Virus record (IMG/VR): IMGVR_UViG_3300027672_001612
Span: 1 to 64,000 of that record
Strand: one strand, 5' to 3'
Origin: a virus
Taxonomy: Duplodnaviria > Caudoviricetes
DNA: 64,000 nucleotides
Part shown: piece by piece, positions 10,989 to 48,932 of the stretch
Position numbering within the stretch: the stretch's first letter is position 1
Layout: each line of letters begins with the position of its first letter
Translations under genes and position numbers: made by a program
Notes under the pieces: model-generated
The model's input: the letters and a program-made list of their open reading frames with translations, nothing else
The model's database searches: none
Told to the model about the DNA's origin: nothing

Positions 10989-11650
10989 AAGAAGCTCTTA
11001 AATCCTTAAATAAAAAATATGAAAAGACATTAAAACTCTTGAGTGATAAGCCGAAAGAAGTTATAATAGAGAAACAAGTTGAAAAGATAGTAGAAAAGAT
11101 AGTAGAAGTAGAAGTACCAGTTGAAGTCCCAGTTGAAGTTATTAAAGAAATAATAGTTACTAAGGAGATTGAAGTTGAAAAATTCATCGAGATTGAAAAA
11201 CCAGTCGAGGTTGAGGTCATCAAGGAGACAGTTCGAATTGTTGAAAAGGAAGTGCAAGGGCCAGAACGTATTGTTGAAGTCCCAGGACCAGAACGAATTG
11301 TTGAAGTCCCAGGACCAGAACGAATTGTCGAACGTGTTGTTGAAGTCCCAGGACGAGAACGAGTCGTAGTTAGGACAGATAACAGCAAGATAGAAGAGTT
11401 AGAACAACGTTTAGCAGTTAAGCCTTCAGTAGTTGAGAAGGCTAATGCTAACAACTTAATTGAAGCCGCAAGGATCATGTCTGAGAGCGAGTTCAATAAA
11501 GAAGGGTATACTGAGGAAGAAATATTAAATATGCTTACAAAGACAAGTGAAGAAGAAGTTAATCGTACTTTAGGGTTCTGGGCTATACCATTACCAAAAG
11601 ACGATAATGATAAACCAGATCCAGACAACTTGAGGTATACCACAAAATAA
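10982..11650 (+). CDS. VE(V/K)P charged-repeat domain; probable frameshifted C-terminal extension of 9603-10988
   Basis: Frame open upstream of the weak TTG at 11039 (RLEEALKSLNKKYEKTLKLLSDKP...); EKIVEVP/VEVPGPERI repeats. Confidence 0.7.
   Translation, partial: RLEEALKSLNKKYEKTLKLLSDKPKEVIIEKQVEKIVEKIVEVEVPVEVPVEVIKEIIVTKEIEVEKFIEIEKPVEVEVIKETVRIVEKEVQGPERIVEVPGPERIVEVPGPERIVERVVEVPGRERVVVRTDNSKIEELEQRLAVKPSVVEKANANNLIEAARIMSESEFNKEGYTEEEILNMLTKTSEEEVNRTLGFWAIPLPKDDNDKPDPDNLRYTTK
11271..11362 (+). repeat. 27-bp tandem coding repeat (VEVPGPERI), two exact copies plus one degenerate copy
   Basis: ttgttgaagtcccaggaccagaacgaa at 11271 and 11298; variant at 11337. Confidence 0.9.
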
Positions 11651-12921
11651 TGTCCGATAATAAAGATAGTAACCTAGAATGTAGTTTCTGTGGCAAGAAA
11701 CGACATGATGTGCGTAAACTAATCGCTGGACCTAACTCGTATATTTGTAATGAATGTGTGAGTATAAGTCATAAAATTATTAACGAGGACTACGATACTT
11801 CTCCAGACATGGAACTGGAAGATATCCCTACCCCACAAGAAATTAAAGACTACTTAGATGAATATGTAATCAGCCAAGAATATGCAAAAGAGATTCTAAG
11901 TGTATGTGCATACAACCATTATAAGAAAACTTACTACAGCGATGATAAAGACAGTATCGAAAAGAGTAATGTACTATTAATAGGTAGCACTGGTACAGGT
12001 AAAACACTTATAGTACAAACACTTGCTAGGAAACTTGGTGTGCCATTTGCTATAGCAGATGCAACTACACTTACTGAAGCAGGGTACGTTGGTGAAGATG
12101 TAGAGAGTGTAATCGAACGACTACTTAATACATGTGACTGGAACGTAGAAAAAGCACAGAAGGGTATAGTATTCATAGACGAGATTGATAAAAAGGCTCG
12201 TAGCAGTGAGTCTAACACCGGCACAAAGGATATTAGTGGAGAAGGTGTACAACAAGCACTCTTAAGACTAATAGAAGGAACTACTGTAAAGATTTCCACT
12301 AACGGCTCAAAGCGTATGGATGACTTTATTGAATTTGATACTAAAGACGTATTGTTTATAGTAGGCGGAGCATTTGTAGGGTTAGACAAGATTGTTAACA
12401 AAAAATTAAAGAAAGGATCGATAGGATTCAATCAGAAAGTTCACAGTAAGAAAACAGATGTAAATTGGCTAGACCATGTTGAACATGATGACATTATCAG
12501 CTATGGATTAATTCCAGAGTTTGCTGGTAGGTTACCTAATATTGTAGGATTAGAAGATTTAGACCAAGATGATATGTTTAGCATATTAACTAATGCTAAA
12601 TCTAGTTGTATTACACAGGTAACAAAATTATTAGAATTAGATGAAATAGAATTACAGTTTGAGGAGCAATATCTTAAAGACGTTGCCGAGATTGCTGTAA
12701 AGAAAAAAGTTGGAGCAAGAGGATTAAAAAGCATTGTAGAAAACAGTTTACACAATATAATGTTTAGGGCGCCAATATTAAGACAGGAACAAGTGCAACA
12801 AGTGATATTTAATAAGTATCCTAAAACGGTTGACTTGCATCCTGTATTTGTGTATACTAACGGCAATAGTGAAATTGATAGACACTATAAAATTAAACTT
12901 AGAGGTAAAAGTGAGTTATAA
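11650..12921 (+). CDS. clpX: Clp protease ATPase ClpX
   Basis: C4 zinc finger (CSFCGK..ICNEC), GSTGTGKT, TEAGYVGEDVE, FIDEIDK, GEGVQQALL, IGF loop, GARGL. Confidence 0.96.
   Translation: MSDNKDSNLECSFCGKKRHDVRKLIAGPNSYICNECVSISHKIINEDYDTSPDMELEDIPTPQEIKDYLDEYVISQEYAKEILSVCAYNHYKKTYYSDDKDSIEKSNVLLIGSTGTGKTLIVQTLARKLGVPFAIADATTLTEAGYVGEDVESVIERLLNTCDWNVEKAQKGIVFIDEIDKKARSSESNTGTKDISGEGVQQALLRLIEGTTVKISTNGSKRMDDFIEFDTKDVLFIVGGAFVGLDKIVNKKLKKGSIGFNQKVHSKKTDVNWLDHVEHDDIISYGLIPEFAGRLPNIVGLEDLDQDDMFSILTNAKSSCITQVTKLLELDEIELQFEEQYLKDVAEIAVKKKVGARGLKSIVENSLHNIMFRAPILRQEQVQQVIFNKYPKTVDLHPVFVYTNGNSEIDRHYKIKLRGKSEL
12830..12858 (+). promoter_or_regulatory. sigma70-type promoter inside the clpX 3' end, driving bS21
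   Basis: AAAACGG-TTGACT-N17-TATACT. Confidence 0.65.
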
Positions 12922-23248: not shown

Positions 23249-23548
23249 ATGGCTAAAGAGGCAGTAAAAACAAGAACGTCAACGGAACTTCGATATCCTT
23301 CCAGATTTAATGTTGTTATATATAACGATGACTTTACTCCTGTAGAGTTTGTTATAACTTTGTTAATAGAGATATTTAATAAAAATATTTCTTCAGCAAA
23401 AACATTAACGCAAACCGTACATTCAGACGGACAAGCAGTAGCCGGAACATATAACTCAGAGATTGCTGAACAGAAATGTTTAGAGGCAGTTGCAGTATCC
23501 AGATCAGCCGGGCATCCTCTACAACTTAAAGTTGAAAAAATAGGATGA
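23249..23548 (+). CDS. clpS: N-degron adaptor ClpS
   Basis: [30 protein letters not shown]. Confidence 0.93.
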
Positions 23549-25002
23549 GCATTGATAACCTCAATACTAGCAAATACGAACAAGGCTTCGATACTAAAGT
23601 AGAAGCGGACAGTTTGCCGCCTGGATTAGATGAAGAAACTGTAAGAAAGATTAGTGCTATTAAAGAAGAGCCAGAATGGTTACTGGACTTCAGATTAAAA
23701 GCATTTAAGAGATGGCTTACTATGGACGAGCCTAATTGGAGTGAGCTAACTTATGTGCCTATTGATTACCAAGCACTTAGTTATTACTCCGCACCTAAGT
23801 TTTTTGAAGAAGGTGATATTCCACAAGAGATTTTAGATACGTTTGAAAAGTTAGGTGTCCCATTACACGAACGTGATGCATTACTTGGTTTAGATACAAC
23901 TAAAACTGTAGACGAAAGCAAGATCCCATTAGTAGCCATTGATGCAGTATTTGATAGTGTTAGCATCGCTACTACATTCCAGAAAGAATTAAAGAAACAC
24001 GGTATTATATTCAGTAGTATCAGTGAAGCAGTAAAAGAACATCCAGAACTAGTTAAGCAGTATTTAGGCACAGTTGTACCATACACTGACAACTACTTTG
24101 CTACACTGAACTCTGCGGTGTTCACAGACGGTACATTTGTATACATTCCACCTGGCGTTAGATGTCCTATGGAGTTAAATACATACTTCCGTATTAATGC
24201 TCGTAACACAGGACAGTTTGAACGCACACTTATTGTAGCAGATGCAGACAGCTTTGTTAGTTACTTAGAAGGTTGTACAGCGCCAGCATATGATGAGAAC
24301 ACCCTACATGCGGCGGTTGTGGAGCTCGTAACACACGATAGAGCAGAGATCAAGTATAGCACAGTACAAAATTGGTATGCTGGAGATGAGAATGGTGTGG
24401 GAGGAGTTTATAACTTCGTGACCAAACGAGCCATGTGTAAAGGTGTAGACAGTAAAGTAAGTTGGACTCAAGTTGAAACAGGTAGTGCTATCACATGGAA
24501 GTATCCTAGTTGCATACTTAAAGGCGATGGTAGTATCGGCGAGTTCTTCAGTGTTGCAGTTACCCAAGGTAAGCAACAAGCAGATACTGGCACCAAAATG
24601 ATACACTTAGGAAAGAACACAAAGAGTACTATTATATCCAAAGGCATTAGTTTTGGAGATAGTACAAACACATATAGAGGATCAGTCAAAGTAAATCCTG
24701 GTGCTCACAATGCTCAGAACTTTACCAAGTGCGATAGTTTAATGTTGCAAGACAGTAGAGCATTAACCATCCCTTACATCACATGCCAAAATGATAGTGC
24801 TAAGATAGAGCATGAAGCAAGTGCTGGAAAGATTAGTGAAGAGCAATTATATTATTTACAAAGTAGAGGTCTCAGCGAAGACGATGCTATGAATCTAGTT
24901 GTTAATGGATTCTGCAAAGATGTATTCCAAAAGTTACCATTAGAATTTGCCGCAGAAGCAAATAAACTATTAAGTGTAACACTGGAAGGCGCAGTAGGAT
25001 AA
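23545..25002 (+). CDS. sufB: Fe-S assembly scaffold SufB
   Basis: [54 protein letters not shown]. Confidence 0.97.
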
Positions 25003-25005
25003 ACA

Positions 25006-25034
25006 TTGACAACAAATAACAAAGGTAGTACAAT
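25006..25034 (+). promoter_or_regulatory. Leaderless sigma70 promoter of sufC
   Basis: TTGACA-N17-TACAAT-N6-ATG. Confidence 0.75.
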
Positions 25035-25040
25035 ACACAC

Positions 25041-25739
25041 ATGCTAAAATTAAAAAATTATACAGTTGAAGGAATATTCGAAGATGTTAGTTTAACATTT
25101 GAAGCTGGCAAAACTTATGTCATAATGGGCAGTAACGGTGTAGGCAAAAGCACACTGATACACAGTCTAATGGGTAAGCCAGGACTACCAGAAGCAACTG
25201 GTTGTGCAAGTTTTCAAGGTAGCGATATTAACGCACTAGAAACAGACGAACGTGCTAGACTAGGCATGTTTGTAGGATTCCAAGCACCAACAAGTATTCC
25301 AGGTCTAAGTAACTTTCAATTTATTAAACAAGCAACTGGTCTTAAAGTAACAGACATCAAAGAGTCTTTAGGCAAGTTTAAAGAATTCGCTAACACATTA
25401 GGTTTACCAAATGATTGGGATAAACGTAATCTTAACACAGATGCAAGTGGCGGCGAAAAGAAAAAGAACGAACTAATCCAAATGCTAATGATGAATACAA
25501 AGTTAGCAATGTTAGATGAACCTGATAGTGGACTAGACGTAGACGGAATTAAAGCATTAACATCAGAACTAAATGCATGGCGTACAGAAGACAATACTTT
25601 GATTGTAGTAACACATTACGACAAACTAATTACAGGATTGAATCCTGACGCTGTTATTGTTTTACAAAAAGACGGCGCTATTAAAGGTGACCAAACTTTA
25701 GCAGACAAGATTTTTGCTGATGGGTTCGAAGGTGTATAA
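25041..25739 (+). CDS. sufC: Fe-S assembly ATPase SufC
   Basis: GSNGVGKST, ERARLG, SGGEKKKNE, LDEPDSGLDVD, VTHY. Confidence 0.93.
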   Translation: MLKLKNYTVEGIFEDVSLTFEAGKTYVIMGSNGVGKSTLIHSLMGKPGLPEATGCASFQGSDINALETDERARLGMFVGFQAPTSIPGLSNFQFIKQATGLKVTDIKESLGKFKEFANTLGLPNDWDKRNLNTDASGGEKKKNELIQMLMMNTKLAMLDEPDSGLDVDGIKALTSELNAWRTEDNTLIVVTHYDKLITGLNPDAVIVLQKDGAIKGDQTLADKIFADGFEGV

Positions 25740-27006
25740 AACTTTATTCGGGCAATCACTGTTAAGCCAGCAAACCAATGCAGAAGAGTTCCATAAATTA
25801 GAAGACTATGTTGATTACGTTACCTCTAATAATTTTATAGATGAACTACCACACTCTTACTGGGCCAATATACTCCCACAGTTAAAAAAGACGTATGAGA
25901 CTAACATACTATCTTTAAAGGATACTGGACTACCTACTAAACGTAGTGAGCAGTTTAACTTTGCAAACATACATAAACTGTATGATATTGATATCCTAAG
26001 TGCTGAATCAGATAAAGATAGTTATGACGTTATAGAACGTTTTAGTTATTTGAACGGTAAGACTAAGTCTATTGTATTAAACGACAGCAGAGTATTTACA
26101 TCAAATGATTTAGGTAAACGTAGTCCGTTTAACATACAGATATTAGATAGTGTTAATACTAATAAGAACAGACAAAGCGAATATGTAAAACTACTAAAGC
26201 AACAAGATAACTTTAGTAAAGTAACATACGCTCTTTCACCTTTCCCTAACATAATTATATTCCCTAATGGTAGTAACGATACGTTTAATAAAAATCCTGT
26301 TACAGTCCAGTATAGGAACAGCAGTGATGAACCTAGACTAGAGTGCAACACAACTATTTTTGATGTACAATACAATGCTAAAGTACATTTAAAAGAAGAT
26401 GTTAAAACTACAGCAGGACAAATGAATTACAGCATGTATGTTCTTAGAGAAAACTCAGAACTAACAATAGAGCGAACAACAAACGATTACGGTGGATGGA
26501 ATATATTTGATAGTGTATTCATTTGCCACCCTGGAAGTAAACTAACAGTTAAGTTTACAAACACAGGAAGCCAGTACACACAAGAAAACTTTTACATTGA
26601 TAGTAGCAGTAAAACCTCAGTTGAAATTATTGGCAGAAACGAAATTTATAAAGGCAATCAGTATCACCAATATGTGTATCAGAAAAGCAATGATCCTGAT
26701 AACTATAGTTGTATTGATATTCGTAATGTTGGTAAAGAATATGCATCAACTAGTTTTATAGGCAGGTATGATGTTGGACCACTAAGCACAGACTTTGATG
26801 GTACAATGAACAACCAGAATTTAATGCTAGATAAAAATGTTACTATGCATACTAGACCAGTATTAGATATCCATACAAAAGAAATCAAGTGTCAGCATGG
26901 TTGCACCGTTAGTAATGTTAACGAAGACCATATGTATTATTTACAAAGTAAAGGTGTTGATAGAGTAACCGCATCAGAGATGCTAATAGAGAGTTTTTTA
27001 TGTTAA
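25714..27006 (+). CDS. sufD: Divergent SufD
   Basis: GLPTKRSEQF, NQNLML, TRPVLDIHTKEIKCQHGCTV, YYLQSKG; lies between sufC and sufS; start uncertain. Confidence 0.82.
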   Translation: MLMGSKVYKTLFGQSLLSQQTNAEEFHKLEDYVDYVTSNNFIDELPHSYWANILPQLKKTYETNILSLKDTGLPTKRSEQFNFANIHKLYDIDILSAESDKDSYDVIERFSYLNGKTKSIVLNDSRVFTSNDLGKRSPFNIQILDSVNTNKNRQSEYVKLLKQQDNFSKVTYALSPFPNIIIFPNGSNDTFNKNPVTVQYRNSSDEPRLECNTTIFDVQYNAKVHLKEDVKTTAGQMNYSMYVLRENSELTIERTTNDYGGWNIFDSVFICHPGSKLTVKFTNTGSQYTQENFYIDSSSKTSVEIIGRNEIYKGNQYHQYVYQKSNDPDNYSCIDIRNVGKEYASTSFIGRYDVGPLSTDFDGTMNNQNLMLDKNVTMHTRPVLDIHTKEIKCQHGCTVSNVNEDHMYYLQSKGVDRVTASEMLIESFLC

Positions 27007-28232
27007 GAGTATATCCCAAAGCGAAACAGATTAATGAAATTAGGAATTGTTTTCCTAGTTTAGCATATACTGAATTAGCATATTTAGATAACGCCGCCAG
27101 TTCACAAACTGTAGACAGTGCAATTAAGGCTGTGAGTGATTATCATTATAACTACAGAGCCAATGTGCATAGAGGTGATTTTTATACTAGCGGAATTGCT
27201 AGTGAGAAGTTTGACCAAGCAAGAGAAGAAGTTGCTAAACTAATTAACTGCGACATATCTGAGATTGCATTTACGGCAGGCACAACAGATGGCTTAAATA
27301 TTATAGCAGATTTTTTAAATGACGACAGAACAGTAATACTCACAGAGCTAGAACATCACAGCAATATCCTTCCTTGGATGAAGCATGACAAAACTGCAAA
27401 AAACGGTAAGTTAGTTATAGTGCCAGCAAGTGATCACGGTGATGTAAGTATAGCAGATTTCCAAAGAGCAGTCGAAAATAATCCTGGGAGTGTTGTATCG
27501 TTTCTAACACAAAGTAATTTAACTGGAATGAACACACCATGGCAAGAAATGGTACGCATTGCTAAAGCAAATGATTGTGAAGTTGTTATAGATGCTTGTC
27601 AAAGTATTGCACACAAACAAATTGACTTACAAGCAAACAACATTGACTGGCTGGTATTTAGTGGACATAAGATGTATGCTAGTACAGGATCAGGTGTGTT
27701 GTTTCATAGAGGCGGATTTAGTGAAGTACATGGACACGGCTTAGGTGGTGGAACTGCTGAGTTTGTTAGTTTCGACGAATACAATTTGCATGGAGACTTT
27801 GAACGTATTGAAGCAGGTACTCCAAACGTAGCAGGCGTACACAGTATTGGCGCCGCGGCAAAATGGATTAATGAAATTGGATACAAAACTATACAAGAGA
27901 ATGAAGCAGAGTTTTTTAATATGCTTAGAGACAAAGGATTGTTTGAGATTGAAGGATTAAAACTTATTGGACCGTTGGGACCTAGAAGCGTTTATAGTTT
28001 TGTAACAGAAATGTGTAACCCTAGCGACTTAGCAGGATTTTTAAGTTTCGATAAAGTATGTGTAAGGACGGGCCATATGTGTGCCCAGCCTGCCAGTAGG
28101 CGTTACAACAACAAAGAAACTGGTGTATTCAGAGTTAGCTCTGGCCCATACAATAATGAATTAGACTGTGTTAAATTAGTGGAGGGAATATGGAAAGCGG
28201 TAGACAAGATGACAGCCTCGAAGACCAAATAG
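27000..28232 (+). CDS. sufS: Cysteine desulfurase SufS
   Basis: YLDNAASSQ, ANVHRG, EHHSN, SGHKMY, EAGTP, RTGHMCA. Confidence 0.95.
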   Translation: MLRVYPKAKQINEIRNCFPSLAYTELAYLDNAASSQTVDSAIKAVSDYHYNYRANVHRGDFYTSGIASEKFDQAREEVAKLINCDISEIAFTAGTTDGLNIIADFLNDDRTVILTELEHHSNILPWMKHDKTAKNGKLVIVPASDHGDVSIADFQRAVENNPGSVVSFLTQSNLTGMNTPWQEMVRIAKANDCEVVIDACQSIAHKQIDLQANNIDWLVFSGHKMYASTGSGVLFHRGGFSEVHGHGLGGGTAEFVSFDEYNLHGDFERIEAGTPNVAGVHSIGAAAKWINEIGYKTIQENEAEFFNMLRDKGLFEIEGLKLIGPLGPRSVYSFVTEMCNPSDLAGFLSFDKVCVRTGHMCAQPASRRYNNKETGVFRVSSGPYNNELDCVKLVEGIWKAVDKMTASKTK

Positions 28233-42330: not shown

Positions 42331-42358
42331 TTGACTTTCTAGATAATTGTGTTATACT
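42331..42358 (+). promoter_or_regulatory. sigma70-type promoter of amtB
   Basis: TTGACT-N16-TATACT. Confidence 0.65.
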
Positions 42359-42390
42359 ATGTATTCCAAAAACTAAAAAGGAGAGAAGAT

Positions 42391-43563
42391 ATGGAATTAG
42401 CATATTCGTTAAACACGTTTTACTTTCTGTTATCCGGCGTACTAGTTATGTGGATGGCGGCAGGATTTACTATGCTCGAAGCAGGTTCTGTGAGAAGTAA
42501 AAATGTAATAGAGATTTTACTAAAAAACGTAGCACTATATAGTGTTGCATCATTAACATTTTTAATCGTAGGCTATAGCATTATGTATGGTTGGGGAGAT
42601 ATATCTACACATTCTGTGTATGCTGATTTCTTTTTCCAAGTTGTATTTGTAGCCACAGCAATGTCTGTTGTATCAGGTGCAGTAGCAGAGCGTAAAAAAC
42701 TGTGGACATTCTTATTGTTCGCGGCAATCTTCACAGCAATCATTTACCCTATACAGGGTTCGTGGTCGTGGGGTGGAGGCTGGTTAAGTGAAAGAGGATT
42801 CTTTGACTTTGCTGGTGCAGGAATAGTACATATGGCAGGTGCCACTGCGGCATTGGCTGGTGTGTTAATACTAGGTCCTCGTAAAGGTAAGTATGCTAAA
42901 GACGGCACACCTAAACCAATACACGGTTCTAATGCGGCTCAGGTTGCTCTAGGAACACTTATCTTATGGATGGGGTGGTTTGGCTTTAATGGCGGTTCAC
43001 AACTTGCAATCTCTGGAATAGAGAATGCTGATGCAGTTGCAAAGATATTTGTTAATACAAATACTGCGGCGGCGGCTGGACTAATTACTGCAATGGCTGT
43101 ATGTAAACTATGGCTAGGTAAAACTGCCTTAAATGCTTCAATGAATGGTGCCTTAGCTGGCTTAGTAGTTATTACTGCTGATCCACTTACACCTTCACCA
43201 ATAATTGCTGTAATATACGGAGCAATTGGCGGACTAATAGTTCCGTTTGCAATGAGTTATATTGAGAAGAAAGGAATAGACGATCCTGTAGGTGCTATTA
43301 GTGTTCACGGTGTTGCTGGTATAGTAGGACTCATGTTAGTTCCTATACTAAATGTTGATGCAAGTTTCTTAGAACAAGCAATCGGCATTGGTGTAATCGG
43401 TGGATTCGTATTTAGTACTTCGTACCTTGTATGGCTCTTACTTGATAAGACCGTAGGTATTAGGGTAGGCGAGCAAGAAGAAGTCGGTGGTTCGGACATG
43501 TGGGAAGCTGGTGAAAAAGCATATCCATACTTTATGAAAGGACACGGCGAAGAAGAAAAATAG
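42391..43563 (+). CDS. amtB: Ammonium transporter
   Basis: SGAVAER, DFAGAGIVH, WFGFNGGS, NGALAG, DDPVGAISVHG; AAGGAG SD before ATG 42391. Confidence 0.96.
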   Translation: MELAYSLNTFYFLLSGVLVMWMAAGFTMLEAGSVRSKNVIEILLKNVALYSVASLTFLIVGYSIMYGWGDISTHSVYADFFFQVVFVATAMSVVSGAVAERKKLWTFLLFAAIFTAIIYPIQGSWSWGGGWLSERGFFDFAGAGIVHMAGATAALAGVLILGPRKGKYAKDGTPKPIHGSNAAQVALGTLILWMGWFGFNGGSQLAISGIENADAVAKIFVNTNTAAAAGLITAMAVCKLWLGKTALNASMNGALAGLVVITADPLTPSPIIAVIYGAIGGLIVPFAMSYIEKKGIDDPVGAISVHGVAGIVGLMLVPILNVDASFLEQAIGIGVIGGFVFSTSYLVWLLLDKTVGIRVGEQEEVGGSDMWEAGEKAYPYFMKGHGEEEK

Positions 43564-43878: not shown

Positions 43879-44394
43879 ATGTGGGAGAAACTATTTTGGT
43901 GGTTAGCCAAACGTAGAGGTACAGAAACACTAACCAACATATACACAGACAGTGAATATATGCACAGAGTATTCCTAGGACGCCAAATCCATAAGGACGG
44001 AATAGCTGGAGCATATGGTGGTGGAAGAGTCTGTCTAAATTTAATAACAGGTAGCGACTTACCTGTAGAGCATAATCACCCTTGGGGTTACTTTACTCTC
44101 ATACTGTCGGGAGGATACTATGAGGTTAGAGGAGAGGAACGTAAGTGGCGCAGACCTGGATGGTGTGCTATAAGGTCACATAACGATTTCCATAGAGTTG
44201 AAATCCCTGAAGGTAAATTTGCTATAACATTCTTTGTAAAAAGTCGACATGGGAAAATGGGTTCATACTTTATGGACAATGGCAAACCCGTTAAAGATTT
44301 AAAATTCTGGTTACGCAGAGGCATAGCTAGAGAAAAAATTGGAGCAATGATTAAACTTAAGACTCCAGAGGAAATAATAAATGACAACGATTGA
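43879..44394 (+). CDS. Cupin-fold protein
   Basis: HNHPW..TLILSGGYYE..FHRVE. Confidence 0.75.
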   Translation: MWEKLFWWLAKRRGTETLTNIYTDSEYMHRVFLGRQIHKDGIAGAYGGGRVCLNLITGSDLPVEHNHPWGYFTLILSGGYYEVRGEERKWRRPGWCAIRSHNDFHRVEIPEGKFAITFFVKSRHGKMGSYFMDNGKPVKDLKFWLRRGIAREKIGAMIKLKTPEEIINDND

Positions 44395-45325
44395 TAATAT
44401 TCTAGCAATCACACCAGGCGAAGGAGAAATCTCAGATTGGTTTATTGAACGACTAGAGGTTTTAGTAGAGCAAGGACTGTTCCTAGATGCTAACCATGTT
44501 CTAGGCGTTAGAGAATCTATAGTGGATAGTTTAAAAGAATATAGTAACAAACACAATATAAATTCTGTTGTAGTAGGCATGAGCGGAGGCATAGATAGTG
44601 CCTTAACTGCCGCACTATTCAAACAAGCCGGATGGCAAGTACATGGCTTAACTATGCCTATACATCAAATCGAAGATGAAACTAATAGAGCAATAGAGAA
44701 CATCGATGCATTAAGATTAGAACGACACCACATAGACTTATCAGATCAGTTTGATAATATGCAAGAAAAACTAGGTGCATTCGATAGTACATACAGAGGA
44801 CTACAGCGTCAAGGTAATATTAAAGCAAGACTACGAATGATTGCATTGTATAATCTTGCACACGAAGTACAAGGTCTTGTAGCAAGTACAGATAACTTTA
44901 GCGAATTAGCCGCAGGTTTTTGGACACTACATGGTGACGTAGGCGACCTTGCACCTATACAAAGTTTAAGCAAAAGTTGGGAAGTTCCTGCCTTGGCAAT
45001 GGACCTCGGAGTACCCGAAAACACTATACATGCATTGCCTACAGACGGTTTAGGCATAAGTACTAGCGATGCAGACCAATTGGGAATGAACTACTTAGAG
45101 TTTGATGTGTTGTTAACAGACATGCTTAACCTACCAAAAATAGACGATAAGAGCATATACGAATACATAAATACTATAGATGATGAAGATGCCAAAGAAA
45201 AAGCTATGCTTGTTTTTGGTAGAGTTAAGATGACCGCATTTAAACGTGCTAATCCTTTTAATATTTTTCATCCTGTATACAGCGACAGATTCGCTAAACT
45301 AGACAAACTAGATAGGAGTTTATAA
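44381..45325 (+). CDS. nadE: NH3-dependent NAD+ synthetase
   Basis: GMSGGIDS, GNIKARLRM, TDNFSE..GFWTLHGD, PTDGL. Confidence 0.92.
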   Translation: MTTIDNILAITPGEGEISDWFIERLEVLVEQGLFLDANHVLGVRESIVDSLKEYSNKHNINSVVVGMSGGIDSALTAALFKQAGWQVHGLTMPIHQIEDETNRAIENIDALRLERHHIDLSDQFDNMQEKLGAFDSTYRGLQRQGNIKARLRMIALYNLAHEVQGLVASTDNFSELAAGFWTLHGDVGDLAPIQSLSKSWEVPALAMDLGVPENTIHALPTDGLGISTSDADQLGMNYLEFDVLLTDMLNLPKIDDKSIYEYINTIDDEDAKEKAMLVFGRVKMTAFKRANPFNIFHPVYSDRFAKLDKLDRSL

Positions 45326-45656: not shown

Positions 45657-47543
45657 ATGAAAAAGAAAATTGTTTTAGTTCAACCTAATTTTAAGATAGG
45701 TGGCGGTAGTTTTACCGGTTATTGGTTACCGTACTCTGTAGGTTGTCTTTGGAGTTATGCAAGTCAGCACTCTTGGGTAACAGACGAATTTGAAGTACAA
45801 GACATAATATATAAGAGAGAAGCGCCTGAACAACTAGTTGATAGATTACTAGATTGTACAGTAGCGTTTTTCTCTTGTTATATGTGGAATTGGGAATACA
45901 ACAAATACATAGCCAAAGAACTAAAAAGACGTAACCCAGCGATTGCGATTGTATTCGGTGGACCACAAGTTACAACACGCCCTAAACAGGAAAAATTCTT
46001 CCTAAATCATCCATATGTAGACAGCATTAGCCTTACCGAAGGGGAAGAATCCTTTGTGGCTATACTTGATGCATTAAGGAACGACAATGCTTTACAAGAC
46101 GTCTACGAGGGTCTAAGGCTAGATGATTTAGAGGTACCTAGCCCTTACTTAACTGGCGTATTCGACAAGATTATGGCAGAGTCAGACCCTAACGAACAAT
46201 GGAACGGCACACTAGAAACTAATAGAGGCTGTCCGTTTGCATGTACTTTTTGCGATTGGGGTAGTTTAACGTATGCTAAAATTAAGAAGTTTCCTATGCC
46301 TAAAGTGTTACAAGAGTTAACATGGATGGCAGAGAACAAGATAGACTATGTTACTATTGCTGACGCAAACTTTGGTGTGTTCACAGACAGAGACTTAGAA
46401 GTAACTAACACACTTGTTGACTTACAAAACACATACGGTTATCCAAAAGTTGTAGATGCTACATGGTATAAGAACAGTAGCGATGAAATATTAGAGATTG
46501 TTAAGAAGTTTATTAGCAGTGGATTTAATAGAGGACTAACATTAAGTGTGCAAAGCATGGACATGGATGTTCTAGAAGAGATTAAAAGACGTAACATGGA
46601 AATGTCAGACTTAACTATGATTTTTGACAAGTGTAATAGAGAAGGCATACCAAGTTATACAGAACTTATTTTAGGCTTACCACTAGAAACATTTGAATCT
46701 TGGAAGTCAGGACTATGTGAAGTTATTAAAGCAGGACAACATAATGCTATTGAAAGTTGGTTAGCACAGATGTTAGAAAATGCACACATGAACTTACCAG
46801 AAGAAATTGAGAAGCATGGTATAACTACAGTTGTTGTGGAAAACTATGTTAGTGGATTCGAAGAAGAAGACAACATACCTGAAAAAGTATCATTAGTTAC
46901 CGGCACAAAATATATGCCTAAACCAAAGTTTATTGACAGTTGGTTATATGCATGGGTAGTTAACAACTTCCATAATTATGGTTGGAGTCAAGCACTAGCA
47001 AGAGTTATATATAAATTGAATGGTACTGAGTATGAAGAAACATACGATAAAATGTATCAAGCATGTATAGACGACACTGGCTTAGTTGGTGACCTATTCC
47101 GTACAGCTAAAGAACAACTTACATATTACTTAGAGACAGGTAGAAGTGATGGCGAAGGAAGAGAAAGCTTCAGTGGGCACACATTAATGTGGGAAGCTCA
47201 AAAAGACTTTCACTTGAATAGCAACGCAGTTAAGTCGTTTGTAAAAGAACACATGACTCCAGAGTATTGTAACATGGATCCTGTTATGTACCAATACCTA
47301 TTAGAATTTCAATCCAACTATACAACTGAAGAAAGCACAGACTATCCATTCCAATCAGCACCCGGTTTTAATTTTTATGAATACATAAACAACATAGAGC
47401 CAGAGCTAGTAATGACACTAGAGCCTTACCAATTTAACATAGCAGAAGATGTTAAAGGTGATGAATATTACAATCGACTTTACTTTAGACGTAGACAAGG
47501 TTGGGGCAAAACAATCATTGGCAAAAAACTCACTATAAGTTAA
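45657..47543 (+). CDS. B12-binding-domain radical SAM enzyme
   Basis: GGPQ, EGE, ETNRGCPFACTFCDWG, DANFG, ELILGLP.ET. Confidence 0.92.
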   Translation: MKKKIVLVQPNFKIGGGSFTGYWLPYSVGCLWSYASQHSWVTDEFEVQDIIYKREAPEQLVDRLLDCTVAFFSCYMWNWEYNKYIAKELKRRNPAIAIVFGGPQVTTRPKQEKFFLNHPYVDSISLTEGEESFVAILDALRNDNALQDVYEGLRLDDLEVPSPYLTGVFDKIMAESDPNEQWNGTLETNRGCPFACTFCDWGSLTYAKIKKFPMPKVLQELTWMAENKIDYVTIADANFGVFTDRDLEVTNTLVDLQNTYGYPKVVDATWYKNSSDEILEIVKKFISSGFNRGLTLSVQSMDMDVLEEIKRRNMEMSDLTMIFDKCNREGIPSYTELILGLPLETFESWKSGLCEVIKAGQHNAIESWLAQMLENAHMNLPEEIEKHGITTVVVENYVSGFEEEDNIPEKVSLVTGTKYMPKPKFIDSWLYAWVVNNFHNYGWSQALARVIYKLNGTEYEETYDKMYQACIDDTGLVGDLFRTAKEQLTYYLETGRSDGEGRESFSGHTLMWEAQKDFHLNSNAVKSFVKEHMTPEYCNMDPVMYQYLLEFQSNYTTEESTDYPFQSAPGFNFYEYINNIEPELVMTLEPYQFNIAEDVKGDEYYNRLYFRRRQGWGKTIIGKKLTIS

Positions 47544-47560
47544 CACATCTTTTAATATTG

Positions 47561-47568
47561 TATAAATA
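47561..47568 (+). promoter_or_regulatory. T4-late-type promoter
   Basis: TATAAATA. Confidence 0.75.
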
Positions 47569-47572
47569 CAAC

Positions 47573-47752
47573 GGAAGTTAAGCAATCCCCCTTCCACAAG
47601 AGGACGGTTGATATAGGTGTCGGTTGTTCCGGTGAGTATCCGGTGTAGTTTCGCAATATGACAGACAGCATTACGAGCCTATGAGTACTATAAAAGTTAA
47701 GGAACTTTAACCCCTCAGCATTGTCCGTAAGGAGATGTGAATTTGGGTGCTA
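47573..47752 (+). ncRNA. Candidate large structured leader RNA
   Basis: Nested stems GGAAG/CTTCC, GAGG/CCTC, ATAGG/CCTAT, TGTC/GACA, CCGG/CCGG, GTTAAGG/CTTTAAC, TCC-GTAA-GGA. Confidence 0.55.
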
Positions 47753-47781
47753 ATTAAAATATTAGACTCAAGGAGAGTAAA

Positions 47782-47958
47782 ATGACAAGTATTATTTTAA
47801 ATACGAAGTCATTCTTTCAAAATATTGCAAACAGTTGGACCGGATTCAAAGACAATTATTGTCCTGAAGGTCAAACTTGCAATGACATTGCTACTATAGG
47901 TGGACTTATTTTCACTGTATGGTTTATGTACATTGCTATGGAACCAATACTGAGATAG
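47782..47958 (+). CDS. 58-aa membrane peptide (not in the track)
   Basis: AAGGAG SD; MTSIILNTKS..YCPEGQTC..GGLIFTVWFMYIAMEPILR*. Confidence 0.75.
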   Translation: MTSIILNTKSFFQNIANSWTGFKDNYCPEGQTCNDIATIGGLIFTVWFMYIAMEPILR

Positions 47959-48021
47959 AATTAGACTGAATATACTATAACTATAAAACATGAATATCTT
48001 TAGGATATTCTCCCAAGTTTT

Positions 48022-48050
48022 AGGGTTCGCGGTTGCGGACCCTTTTTTTT
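48022..48050 (+). terminator. Terminator
   Basis: AGGGTTCGC-GGTT-GCGGACCCTTTTTTTT. Confidence 0.85.
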
Positions 48051-48140
48051 GGCTAAAATTTGTATAAATACTTACTCTATAAGGACTCGGAGTCTTTTTG
48101 GGAAAACAAACACAGTAGGATGTGTACACAGGAGTAAAGT

Positions 48141-48932
48141 ATGGGATGGTTAGCAAATTGTTCTGAGTCAGAACGTGCCAGCATTTTGGCAAAACTGGCA
48201 GGTAGAGCTTATCTAAATGAAGCGGAATTAAAAGCCACAGAAAAAACATTAAAGATGCAAAGGTCGAAAGCAAAATTTATTAAAGACGGAGACGCAGAAG
48301 CGTGGGTATTTATTACTCGTGACGATGCTATTATTGTAAGTTGTAGAGGAACAGAGCCAACTAAGTTCAGCGATATACTAGCAGACTTAAAAACAATACC
48401 AGTTAGGCACCCTAGGGCCGGAAGAGTGCATCAAGGATTCAAAGAGTATTCAGATTTAGTATTCGACGAAATTGTAACACATGTTAAGAAAATGCGTAAG
48501 AAAGACGAAAACGTATTTGTGGTAGGGCATAGTTTAGGTGGAGCGATGGCAGTACTAGTAGCAGAAGGATTATCTGATGCTGGCGTACCTGTTAAAGAGC
48601 TAAGAACATTTGGTCAGCCTAGAGTAGGAAATAGAGCATTCAGAAGACATTTAGAAGGTTGTGATATAGGACGTTATATACGTTATGTTAATAATAACGA
48701 TATAGTACCTAGTGTTCCACCTTCAGCATTTGGCTTTGTACACGGCGGTAACTTGCATTACATAAACAGTTGGGGTCTTATTAGAGACATGACTGTATGG
48801 CAAAGAATGAAAGATGGTTGGAGAGGATTTTGGGCGGCTTGTAAGCAGTTTAAATTCTTTGATTTTGTAGCAGATCATGGCATGCCTAATTATGTAGAGA
48901 AGTCCGGTAACATTGCTAAGTTGGATAAATAG
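48141..48932 (+). CDS. Class 3 lipase
   Basis: CRGTE, VHQGF, GHSLGGA, TFGQPRVGN, DIVP, DH; TATAAATA at 48063. Confidence 0.92.
   Translation: MGWLANCSESERASILAKLAGRAYLNEAELKATEKTLKMQRSKAKFIKDGDAEAWVFITRDDAIIVSCRGTEPTKFSDILADLKTIPVRHPRAGRVHQGFKEYSDLVFDEIVTHVKKMRKKDENVFVVGHSLGGAMAVLVAEGLSDAGVPVKELRTFGQPRVGNRAFRRHLEGCDIGRYIRYVNNNDIVPSVPPSAFGFVHGGNLHYINSWGLIRDMTVWQRMKDGWRGFWAACKQFKFFDFVADHGMPNYVEKSGNIAKLDK

Follow-up and report, generated by a model that had tools for sequence, protein, structure and literature searches.

We find that the leader of a small phage gene, at 47573-47781 of the DNA analysed, is a real, conserved, structured RNA, and it is best explained as a cis-acting element of a previously uncatalogued family. 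The window, the whole stretch of 64,000 nt that was analysed, is part of a 109,775-bp IMG/VR virus contig with a CheckV completeness estimate of 30%. Within it, positions 47561-48050 make up a self-contained unit in which the box TATAAATA is followed by a leader of ~210 nt, an SD sequence and ATG, the gene of a 58-aa peptide, a 3′-UTR hairpin, and an intrinsic terminator (Table 1). A preliminary description, made from the sequence, had claimed promoter, leader, SD, peptide, hairpin, and terminator in this interval, and all of them are present. Its interpretation stands in part: the unit does hold a large conserved structured RNA linked in cis to a membrane-peptide gene, and the likenesses it drew to type I toxins and to Downstream-peptide RNAs are not supported, as discussed below. 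Large, complex-folded RNAs of bacteria and phages that show strong covariation but have no known function are rare, and time and again such orphan RNAs have brought to light new riboswitch ligands or new RNA biochemistry.

Table 1. Features of the unit and of the opposite strand (positions in the window)
Feature	Position	Strand	Details	Basis
Putative T4-type late promoter box	47561-47568	+	TATAAATA	sequence reading
P1 hairpin	47573-47595	+	GGAAG 47573-47577 / CTTCC 47591-47595, loop 47578-47590	covariation
P1-loop segment	within 47581-47589	+	AGCA 47581-47584 and CCC 47587-47589	complementary to TGCT 47748-47751 and GGG 47745-47747
Linker	47596-47599	+	ACAA, between P1 and P2	conserved
P2 5′ strand	47600-47609	+	GAGG, AC bulge, GGTT	covariation
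P3 variable domain	47614-47681	+		covariation in 19 long-form sequences
P3 outer stem	47614-47617 / 47678-47681; 47620-47622 / 47674-47676	+	TAGG / CCTA, conserved TG bulge, TCG / CGA	
P3c	47623-47627 / 47665-47669	+	GTTGT / ACAGC	
P3a	47629-47632 / 47640-47643	+	CCGG / CCGG	
P3b	about 47648-47650 / 47660-47662	+		
P4 hairpin	47693-47708	+	AAAGTT-AAGG-AACTTT, SD-like loop	invariant stem and loop
P2 3′ strand	47709-47716	+	AACC CCTC	pairs with 47600-47609
P5 hairpin	47718-47738	+	GNRA tetraloop GTAA 47727-47730	covariation
P6/P7 hairpin	47742-47772	+	P6 TTTGGG 47742-47747 / CTCAAG 47767-47772; P7 CTAAT 47750-47754 / ATTAG 47761-47765	
SD and start codon	47770-47775; 47782-47784	+	AAGGAG; ATG	sequence reading
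58-aa peptide gene	47782-47958	+		ORF, homologues, codon-position entropies
3′-UTR hairpin	47992-48010	+	GAATATC/GATATTC, then TTCTCC 48008-48013	
Intrinsic terminator	48022-48050	+	9-bp GC-rich stem 48022-48043, then T run	sequence reading
154-aa ORF	47809-48273	-		chance frame

By analogy with T4 biology, TATAAATA is a putative late promoter. Five copies occur in the window against 9.1 expected, which is not above chance, so that the box owes its significance to its fixed position in homologues: ATAAATA lies 3-6 nt 5′ of P1 in 97 of 110 unique homologous elements, and several of the other 13 are cut by a contig end. With P1 at the predicted 5′ end of the transcript, the box stands at the proper distance from the predicted start, and together with the unit's own terminator this gives the make-up of a T4-type late unit. 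The extended form TTGTATAAATAC is found again at 48063, ahead of the next gene, a class-3 lipase gene (48141-48932); because that gene has its own copy, the peptide unit is bracketed as a transcription unit of its own. No ORF occurs in the ~210-nt stretch 3′ of the box, and the leader, called relatively GC-rich in the preliminary description, has indeed a GC content of 41-44% against 28-36% in the flanks. Upstream lies the gene of a B12-binding radical SAM protein (628 aa, 45657-47543), and both flanking genes are on the + strand, as is the unit. At homologous loci a radical SAM gene (~620 aa) lies upstream of 45 of 80 units and a lipase gene beside 33 of 66, and the remaining units stand among other genes; the unit therefore moves as a module. 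The order of radical SAM, peptide, and lipase genes may be inherited, or the three may form a functional trio, for example in peptide modification.

Homologues of the leader are numerous and marine. Three IMG/VR loci reached via the peptide carry upstream sequence that aligns with the leader and is conserved above the coding part. A leader pattern with 19 specified bases matched 11 viral contigs, and a gapped pattern used for the collection of homologues (P4 hairpin, TGAA, TGCTA) matched at least 119 marine metagenome contigs and 22 IMG/VR contigs. The RNA is abundant in ocean viromes. De-duplicated, these are the 110 unique elements already mentioned, 97 of which have ATAAATA, the full leader, and SD-ATG within the contig, with 163-244 nt between promoter box and ATG. 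Nucleotide identity is 77% in the 3′ half of the leader and 63% in the coding sequence, and the peptides are 45% identical in amino acids, figures that are biased upward for the leader by collection with a pattern from its 3′ half, which also misses divergent members. A covariance model built from an alignment of 49 representatives (A4) scores the leader at 163 bits (E 1e-42), the single copy in the window and likewise in the entire 109,775-bp record, and it gives 60 matches in 66 loci (E 1e-18 to 1e-49). Matches of an earlier DNA pattern from the P1 loop (L015-L036) were discarded, being mostly unrelated coding sequence.

The family appears to be new to the catalogues. The preliminary description could match it to no named family, and Rfam 15 agrees: at gathering thresholds it has 0 matches in the whole window, at E <= 10 its only match to the leader in 47300-48300 is a 12.6-bit minus-strand chance hit, and at E <= 1 it has no match to the leader at 13 homologous loci. 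Neither the unit nor the peptide was matched by blastn and tblastn among 50,697 deposited phage genomes, in which the radical SAM neighbour had one distant match. Against one genome each of 185,579 prokaryotic species, the gapped pattern gave two matches, one in a Methanosarcina MAG and the other in a contig of a Cytophagia MAG; neither was confirmed by the covariance model, and both are treated as chance. A literature search returned no description of the unit, its peptide, or its competing folds.

The folding energy of the window leader alone is uninformative (z relative to shuffles: + strand 0.08, - strand -0.51), and the case for structure is made by covariation, not by stability. The helices P1, P2, P4, P5, P6, and P7 were written down from alignment A4 and then counted. 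Among the 49 representatives, standard pairs fill 95.5% of cells, and double changes are found at 22 of the 33 pairs. The covariation score of 0.416 compares with 0.133 ± 0.008 for shuffled alignments (0/500) and with at most 0.066 when the partners are slid by 1-3 columns. The pairing and covariation counts repeat on an alignment of 60 sequences made by the covariance model. The preliminary description had named conservation and covariation upstream of peptide homologues as the check on its reading, and both are found there; the nested multi-stem leader with a GTAA tetraloop that it had described is borne out by covariation in P1-P3 and P5-P7 and by GNRA loops in the homologues at the place of GTAA.

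The individual helices differ in how much they vary. In P1, 92.6-94.5% of cells pair, and compensatory changes such as GCAAG/CTTGC and GACG/CGTC are seen at all five pairs. The long-range helix P2 has double changes in all pairs and about ten versions of its sequence. The domain enclosed by it is variable in form: long forms, the window included, have a P3 with a three-way extension, in which, over 19 long-form sequences, 89% of cells pair and covariation is 0.431 versus 0.192 shuffled (0/500), and short-form homologues have a single bulged hairpin in its place, with helices read by eye. P4 (AAAGUU-NAGG-AACUUU) is identical in 49 of 49 and in 60 of 60 aligned sequences, partly by construction because it is in the search pattern, and it is also invariant in loci found via the peptide alone. 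P5 pairs in 98.7% of cells, with double changes in seven of eight pairs. P6/P7 pairs in 99.5% of cells of the 49 representatives, with double changes in four pairs; one leader copy (L143:3012-3255) has an insertion of ~35 nt in the P7 loop, which thus tolerates large insertions. The junctions CACAAC, GAGC, and GUGAA are invariant. The invariant G-U closing pair of P5 and the frequent G-U pairs of P6 place the RNA on the + strand.

Leader and peptide gene go together. All complete copies of the leader are followed at fixed spacing by an SD, an ATG, and a TM peptide of 43-67 aa, with one exception, and none of the complete copies is without a downstream ORF. The exception (L145:447-647, minus strand) precedes a 122-aa protein with a signal-peptide-like N-terminus, which hints that the RNA goes with membrane-targeted products generally. 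The reverse dependence is looser, as three groups of peptide homologues (L050/L051, L052/L059, and L055-L057) lie directly behind another gene and are leaderless, with the covariance model silent; at L052 and L055, no recognisable intergenic leader lies between the upstream ORF and the peptide gene. The peptide family therefore spans several phage types, and the RNA is dispensable for the peptide, an added expression device, which favours a cis-regulatory role over an RNA-protein partnership.

The downstream peptide gene is itself real, judging from its codon-position entropies (0.86, 0.61, and 1.40), a pattern that supports the + strand. The peptide has a polar N-terminal region, the motif CPEGQTC, and a C-terminal TM segment ending WFMYIAMEPILR. 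The membrane character and the cysteine motif singled out in the preliminary description recur in its homologues, 87 of 89 having a TM-like segment and 81 of 89 having CxxxxxC. Peptide matches fall into 112 protein clusters (90% identity), all named hypothetical, and Pfam, PHROGs, and the ESM Atlas offered no function and matched neither a toxin nor any other family. This family of phage membrane peptides of ~60 aa is thus widespread, and some phages evidently need tight late control of its expression. Features compatible with a holin are limited to the single TM segment and the predicted late expression; the peptide has no PHROG or Pfam match, and its commonest neighbours are the radical SAM protein and the class-3 lipase. 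That it is a RiPP precursor of the B12-radical SAM enzyme is not favoured, given that it occurs without that neighbour and that its conserved part is TM-like.

The P1 loop and the 5′ strand of P6/P7 are complementary (Table 1), and we propose from this that they form a pseudoknot. Mutual information computed over the model alignment singled out columns of the P1 loop together with the strand immediately 5′ of P6. When each P1 loop was folded as a duplex with its own TGAA-to-UGCUA segment, an interrupted helix of 7-9 bp formed in nearly all sequences, with a mean z of -1.9 relative to shuffled loops. Cognate loop duplexes average -7.86 kcal/mol compared with -6.09 ± 0.26 kcal/mol for permuted partners (0/5000), a significance inflated by relatedness; among 12 P6-arm sequence types, the cognate pair was the more stable in 11 (Wilcoxon p = 0.0017). 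The variable parts also change jointly, AUCC occurring with GGGU or GGAU, CUCU with AGAG, GGUC with GACU, and CGC with GCG. Counted in fixed columns, only 71% of the pseudoknot is paired, because P1 loops differ in length and register and their columns are not homologous; support for the pseudoknot comes from per-sequence duplex energies and permutations, not from column-wise covariation. Since the pseudoknot uses nucleotides of the P6/P7 5′ strand, the two pairings are mutually exclusive, and their energies are similar (mean -7.9 kcal/mol for the pseudoknot and -6.6 ± 1.7 kcal/mol for the P6/P7 hairpin).

This competition takes place next to the ribosome-binding site. The spacing between SD and ATG is conserved in homologues. 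In the window, the AAG of AAGGAG lies within the 3′ arm of P6/P7; in homologues the P6 3′ arm stops 0-2 nt short of GGAG or includes its first G. In partition-function modelling of the 3′ part, the probability that the SD segment is unpaired goes from 0.36 with the competing strand free to 0.56 with it blocked, as it would be in the pseudoknot (Wilcoxon p = 6e-8); for the leader in the window the values are 0.08 and 0.54. No U run lies 3′ of P6/P7, which makes transcription attenuation unlikely and suggests that any control would be translational. Sequestration of the SD by the CUUCC of P1 was also considered and was dropped, as P1 covaries to CUUGC and CGUC, which are unable to pair with GGAG.

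We think it somewhat probable that the leader is a riboswitch-like, switching cis-regulator of peptide translation. To judge by its sequence, it resembles a conserved, covarying, structured aptamer placed in a 5′ UTR and in cis to a gene. The peptide would be translated from a late phage transcript under control of the leader, whose aptamer-like core would consist of P1, of P2 as the long-range helix around P3 and the invariant P4, and of P5 with its GNRA cap. The core would close when the P1 loop pairs with GGGUGCU (47745-47751). This strand would otherwise lie in the P6/P7 hairpin, which would abut the SD and, in the window, partly cover it. A metabolite, ion, or protein that stabilised the closed, pseudoknotted core would free the 3′ arm and the SD, and translation would go up; without such a stabiliser, the P6/P7 hairpin would form and translation would be damped. 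What the data show is the conservation of the family, its covarying helices, the linkage in cis, and the complementarity of the competing strands; the switching itself, its direction, and the nature of the trigger we infer, and that the closed core corresponds to the ON state is a guess. Because the hairpin covers none of GGAG, or its first G only, in many homologues, the OFF state would be leaky.

The elaborate core, its GNRA loop, the invariant junctions, and the invariant P4 suggest a specific binding partner, which may be either a protein or a small molecule. There is no pointer to a metabolite, because the only associated gene is that of a peptide without an assigned function, and no association with a metabolic gene that might point to a ligand is seen around the unit. 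A true metabolite riboswitch seems to us rather doubtful. We are as hesitant about a more specific proposal, namely, a riboswitch class confined to marine phages whose aptamer would respond, late in infection, to a metabolite or ion of the host and would control translation of a tail-anchored membrane peptide, which might time lysis or membrane remodelling. If true, this would be among the few riboswitches whose regulatory logic is viral rather than taken over with a borrowed host gene. The clear consensus, the testable two-state model by the ribosome-binding site, and the single target gene make the leader tractable for probing and reporter assays.

Several other explanations have to be weighed against switching. 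A static structural leader might protect the late mRNA, place a stable hairpin just ahead of the ribosome-binding site, or provide a standby or SD-like site in the P4 loop (AAGGA), and so give the tiny ORF efficient or fixed-level translation. The start of P1 within 3-6 nt of the promoter box, an SD that is mostly unpaired in the conserved fold, the SD-like and invariant P4 loop, and the absence of a ligand clue would all fit such a leader, yet a multi-helix fold of 165-220 nt with a GNRA loop, invariant junctions, and exclusive complementarity greatly exceeds known stabiliser hairpins in complexity, and the peptide homologues of other phages manage without the RNA; we regard a static leader as unlikely. 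The RNA might also have a role of its own, for example in sequestering a protein as a sponge or decoy, in catalysis as a ribozyme, or in trans, with the ORF merely on the shared transcript. The higher identity of the leader 3′ half (77% of nucleotides) than of the peptide (45% of amino acids) would be expected of such a dual-function RNA, but this comparison is biased by how the copies were gathered. Peptides that diverge beyond recognition while the RNA stays, a P4 that resembles a specific binding site, and the anti-SD-like TTCTCC in the 3′ UTR of a subset point the same way; the downstream ORF, however, is never absent, the RNA-SD-ATG spacing is fixed, and neither a self-cleavage motif nor an Rfam ribozyme match was found, so that on balance we hold this possibility to be quite improbable.

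In the hok, tisB, and zor mRNAs, too, a long folded leader precedes the gene of a small hydrophobic peptide, and the compact, self-contained unit looked to the preliminary description like such a type I toxin locus, in which a toxic membrane peptide would be silenced by its structured 5′ UTR and an antisense partner. That partner is not evident: neither a minus-strand terminator nor a conserved minus-strand promoter was seen at the locus, and the weak sigma-70-like matches on that strand are consensus matches only. The unit is, moreover, predicted to be driven by a late phage promoter, the conserved fold does not sequester its SD, and searches of Pfam, PHROGs, and the protein Atlas placed its peptide in no family, all of which leaves a type I toxin-antitoxin-like system very improbable. 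Least credible of all, and refuted by the results given here, is that there is no functional RNA here and that the region is a spacer or belongs to the minus-strand ORF of 154 aa, which the preliminary description had raised as a possible real gene. The ORF is present in the window, where it crosses the terminator, the promoter, and the start of the lipase gene, but it is not conserved, the longest minus-strand ORF over the peptide gene having a median of 51 aa and reaching at least 100 aa in only 6 of 83 units. The codon-position pattern favours the + strand peptide, and covariation with G-U pairs supports a + strand RNA.

As a riboswitch-like regulator, the leader would by analogy work most like pseudoknot-closed riboswitches in which the 3′ strand of the pseudoknot is common to the expression platform. 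With orphan pseudoknot riboswitch candidates such as ZTP/pfl, it shares the site in a 5′ UTR, a multi-helix core, invariant junctions, and covarying stems, and it would also share a long-range pairing whose 3′ strand can join a hairpin proximal to the ribosome-binding site instead. It differs from these candidates in having no sequence or model similarity to any Rfam riboswitch, in being larger (165-220 nt), in being tied to one tiny gene family rather than a metabolic regulon and in occurring on phage contigs only. The preliminary description had likened the layout to that of marine Downstream-peptide riboswitch loci, and the Downstream-peptide and glutamine-II, glnA RNAs (RF01704 and RF01739) are indeed marine and phage-associated like the leader, the former also preceding short ORFs. 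A kinship is not supported by structure or by search results, as these RNAs are small three-stem pseudoknots, whereas the leader has seven or more helices, and RF01704 and RF01739 are absent on the leader in a scan that was able to detect a genuine glutamine riboswitch, with 59 bits, in locus L139. That riboswitch (RF01739; L139:1-85, minus strand) is a tandem one directly downstream of a copy of the unit, its second copy being cut by the contig end, so that this phage group also carries a known riboswitch.

The likeness to the type I toxin mRNAs hok, tisB, and zorO is confined to a long structured 5′ UTR and a hydrophobic peptide of roughly 50 aa; the unit is set apart by its putative late phage promoter, by an SD that the conserved fold leaves largely open, by its unrelated peptide family, and by the fact that no antisense RNA was seen. 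With the T4 gene 32 pseudoknot, the RegA sites, and the e/soc hairpins, the leader shares RNA structure near the ribosome-binding site and a T4-type transcription programme, but the T4 operators and late-mRNA hairpins are short and gene-specific, in contrast to the leader, a large domain that folds independently and has a consensus across the family. The IMG/VR csRNA catalogue (2023, PMC10690425) holds 8,495 unnamed structured-RNA motifs (DNAVirus_X) of 151 nt or less, a like kind of object from a common data source, and a fragment of the leader may be among them.

The 3′ end of the unit has features of its own. The TTCTCC that follows the 3′-UTR hairpin is complementary to the unit's own SD (GGAGAG), and 22 of 89 units carry it in the 3′ UTR; it may pair the 3′ end with the ribosome-binding site or act on other mRNAs. 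The hairpin and TTCTCC are also the reason for a weak match to the anti-SD sRNA mmgR/suhB (RF00519; 24.3 bits, E 0.015, 47989-48057), which spans the hairpin, a UCUCCC stretch, and the terminator, and which, below the gathering score of 41, does not make the segment a member. Of 89 homologous units, 65 have a terminator-like hairpin with a T run, whose median distance 3′ of the stop codon is 60 nt. The terminator in the window is one-directional.

The phage itself has an unusually rich set of host-like metabolic genes, encoding SufB, SufD-like and SufS-like proteins, ClpX, an ammonium transporter, and NAD synthase (window 23545-28232, 11650-12921, 42349-43563, and 44381-45325), and its record also encodes UvdE and a clamp-loader subunit. 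Near another copy of the unit (L129:1-139) lie two tRNA genes, of which one is complete and the other, truncated by the end of the contig, scores slightly below threshold.
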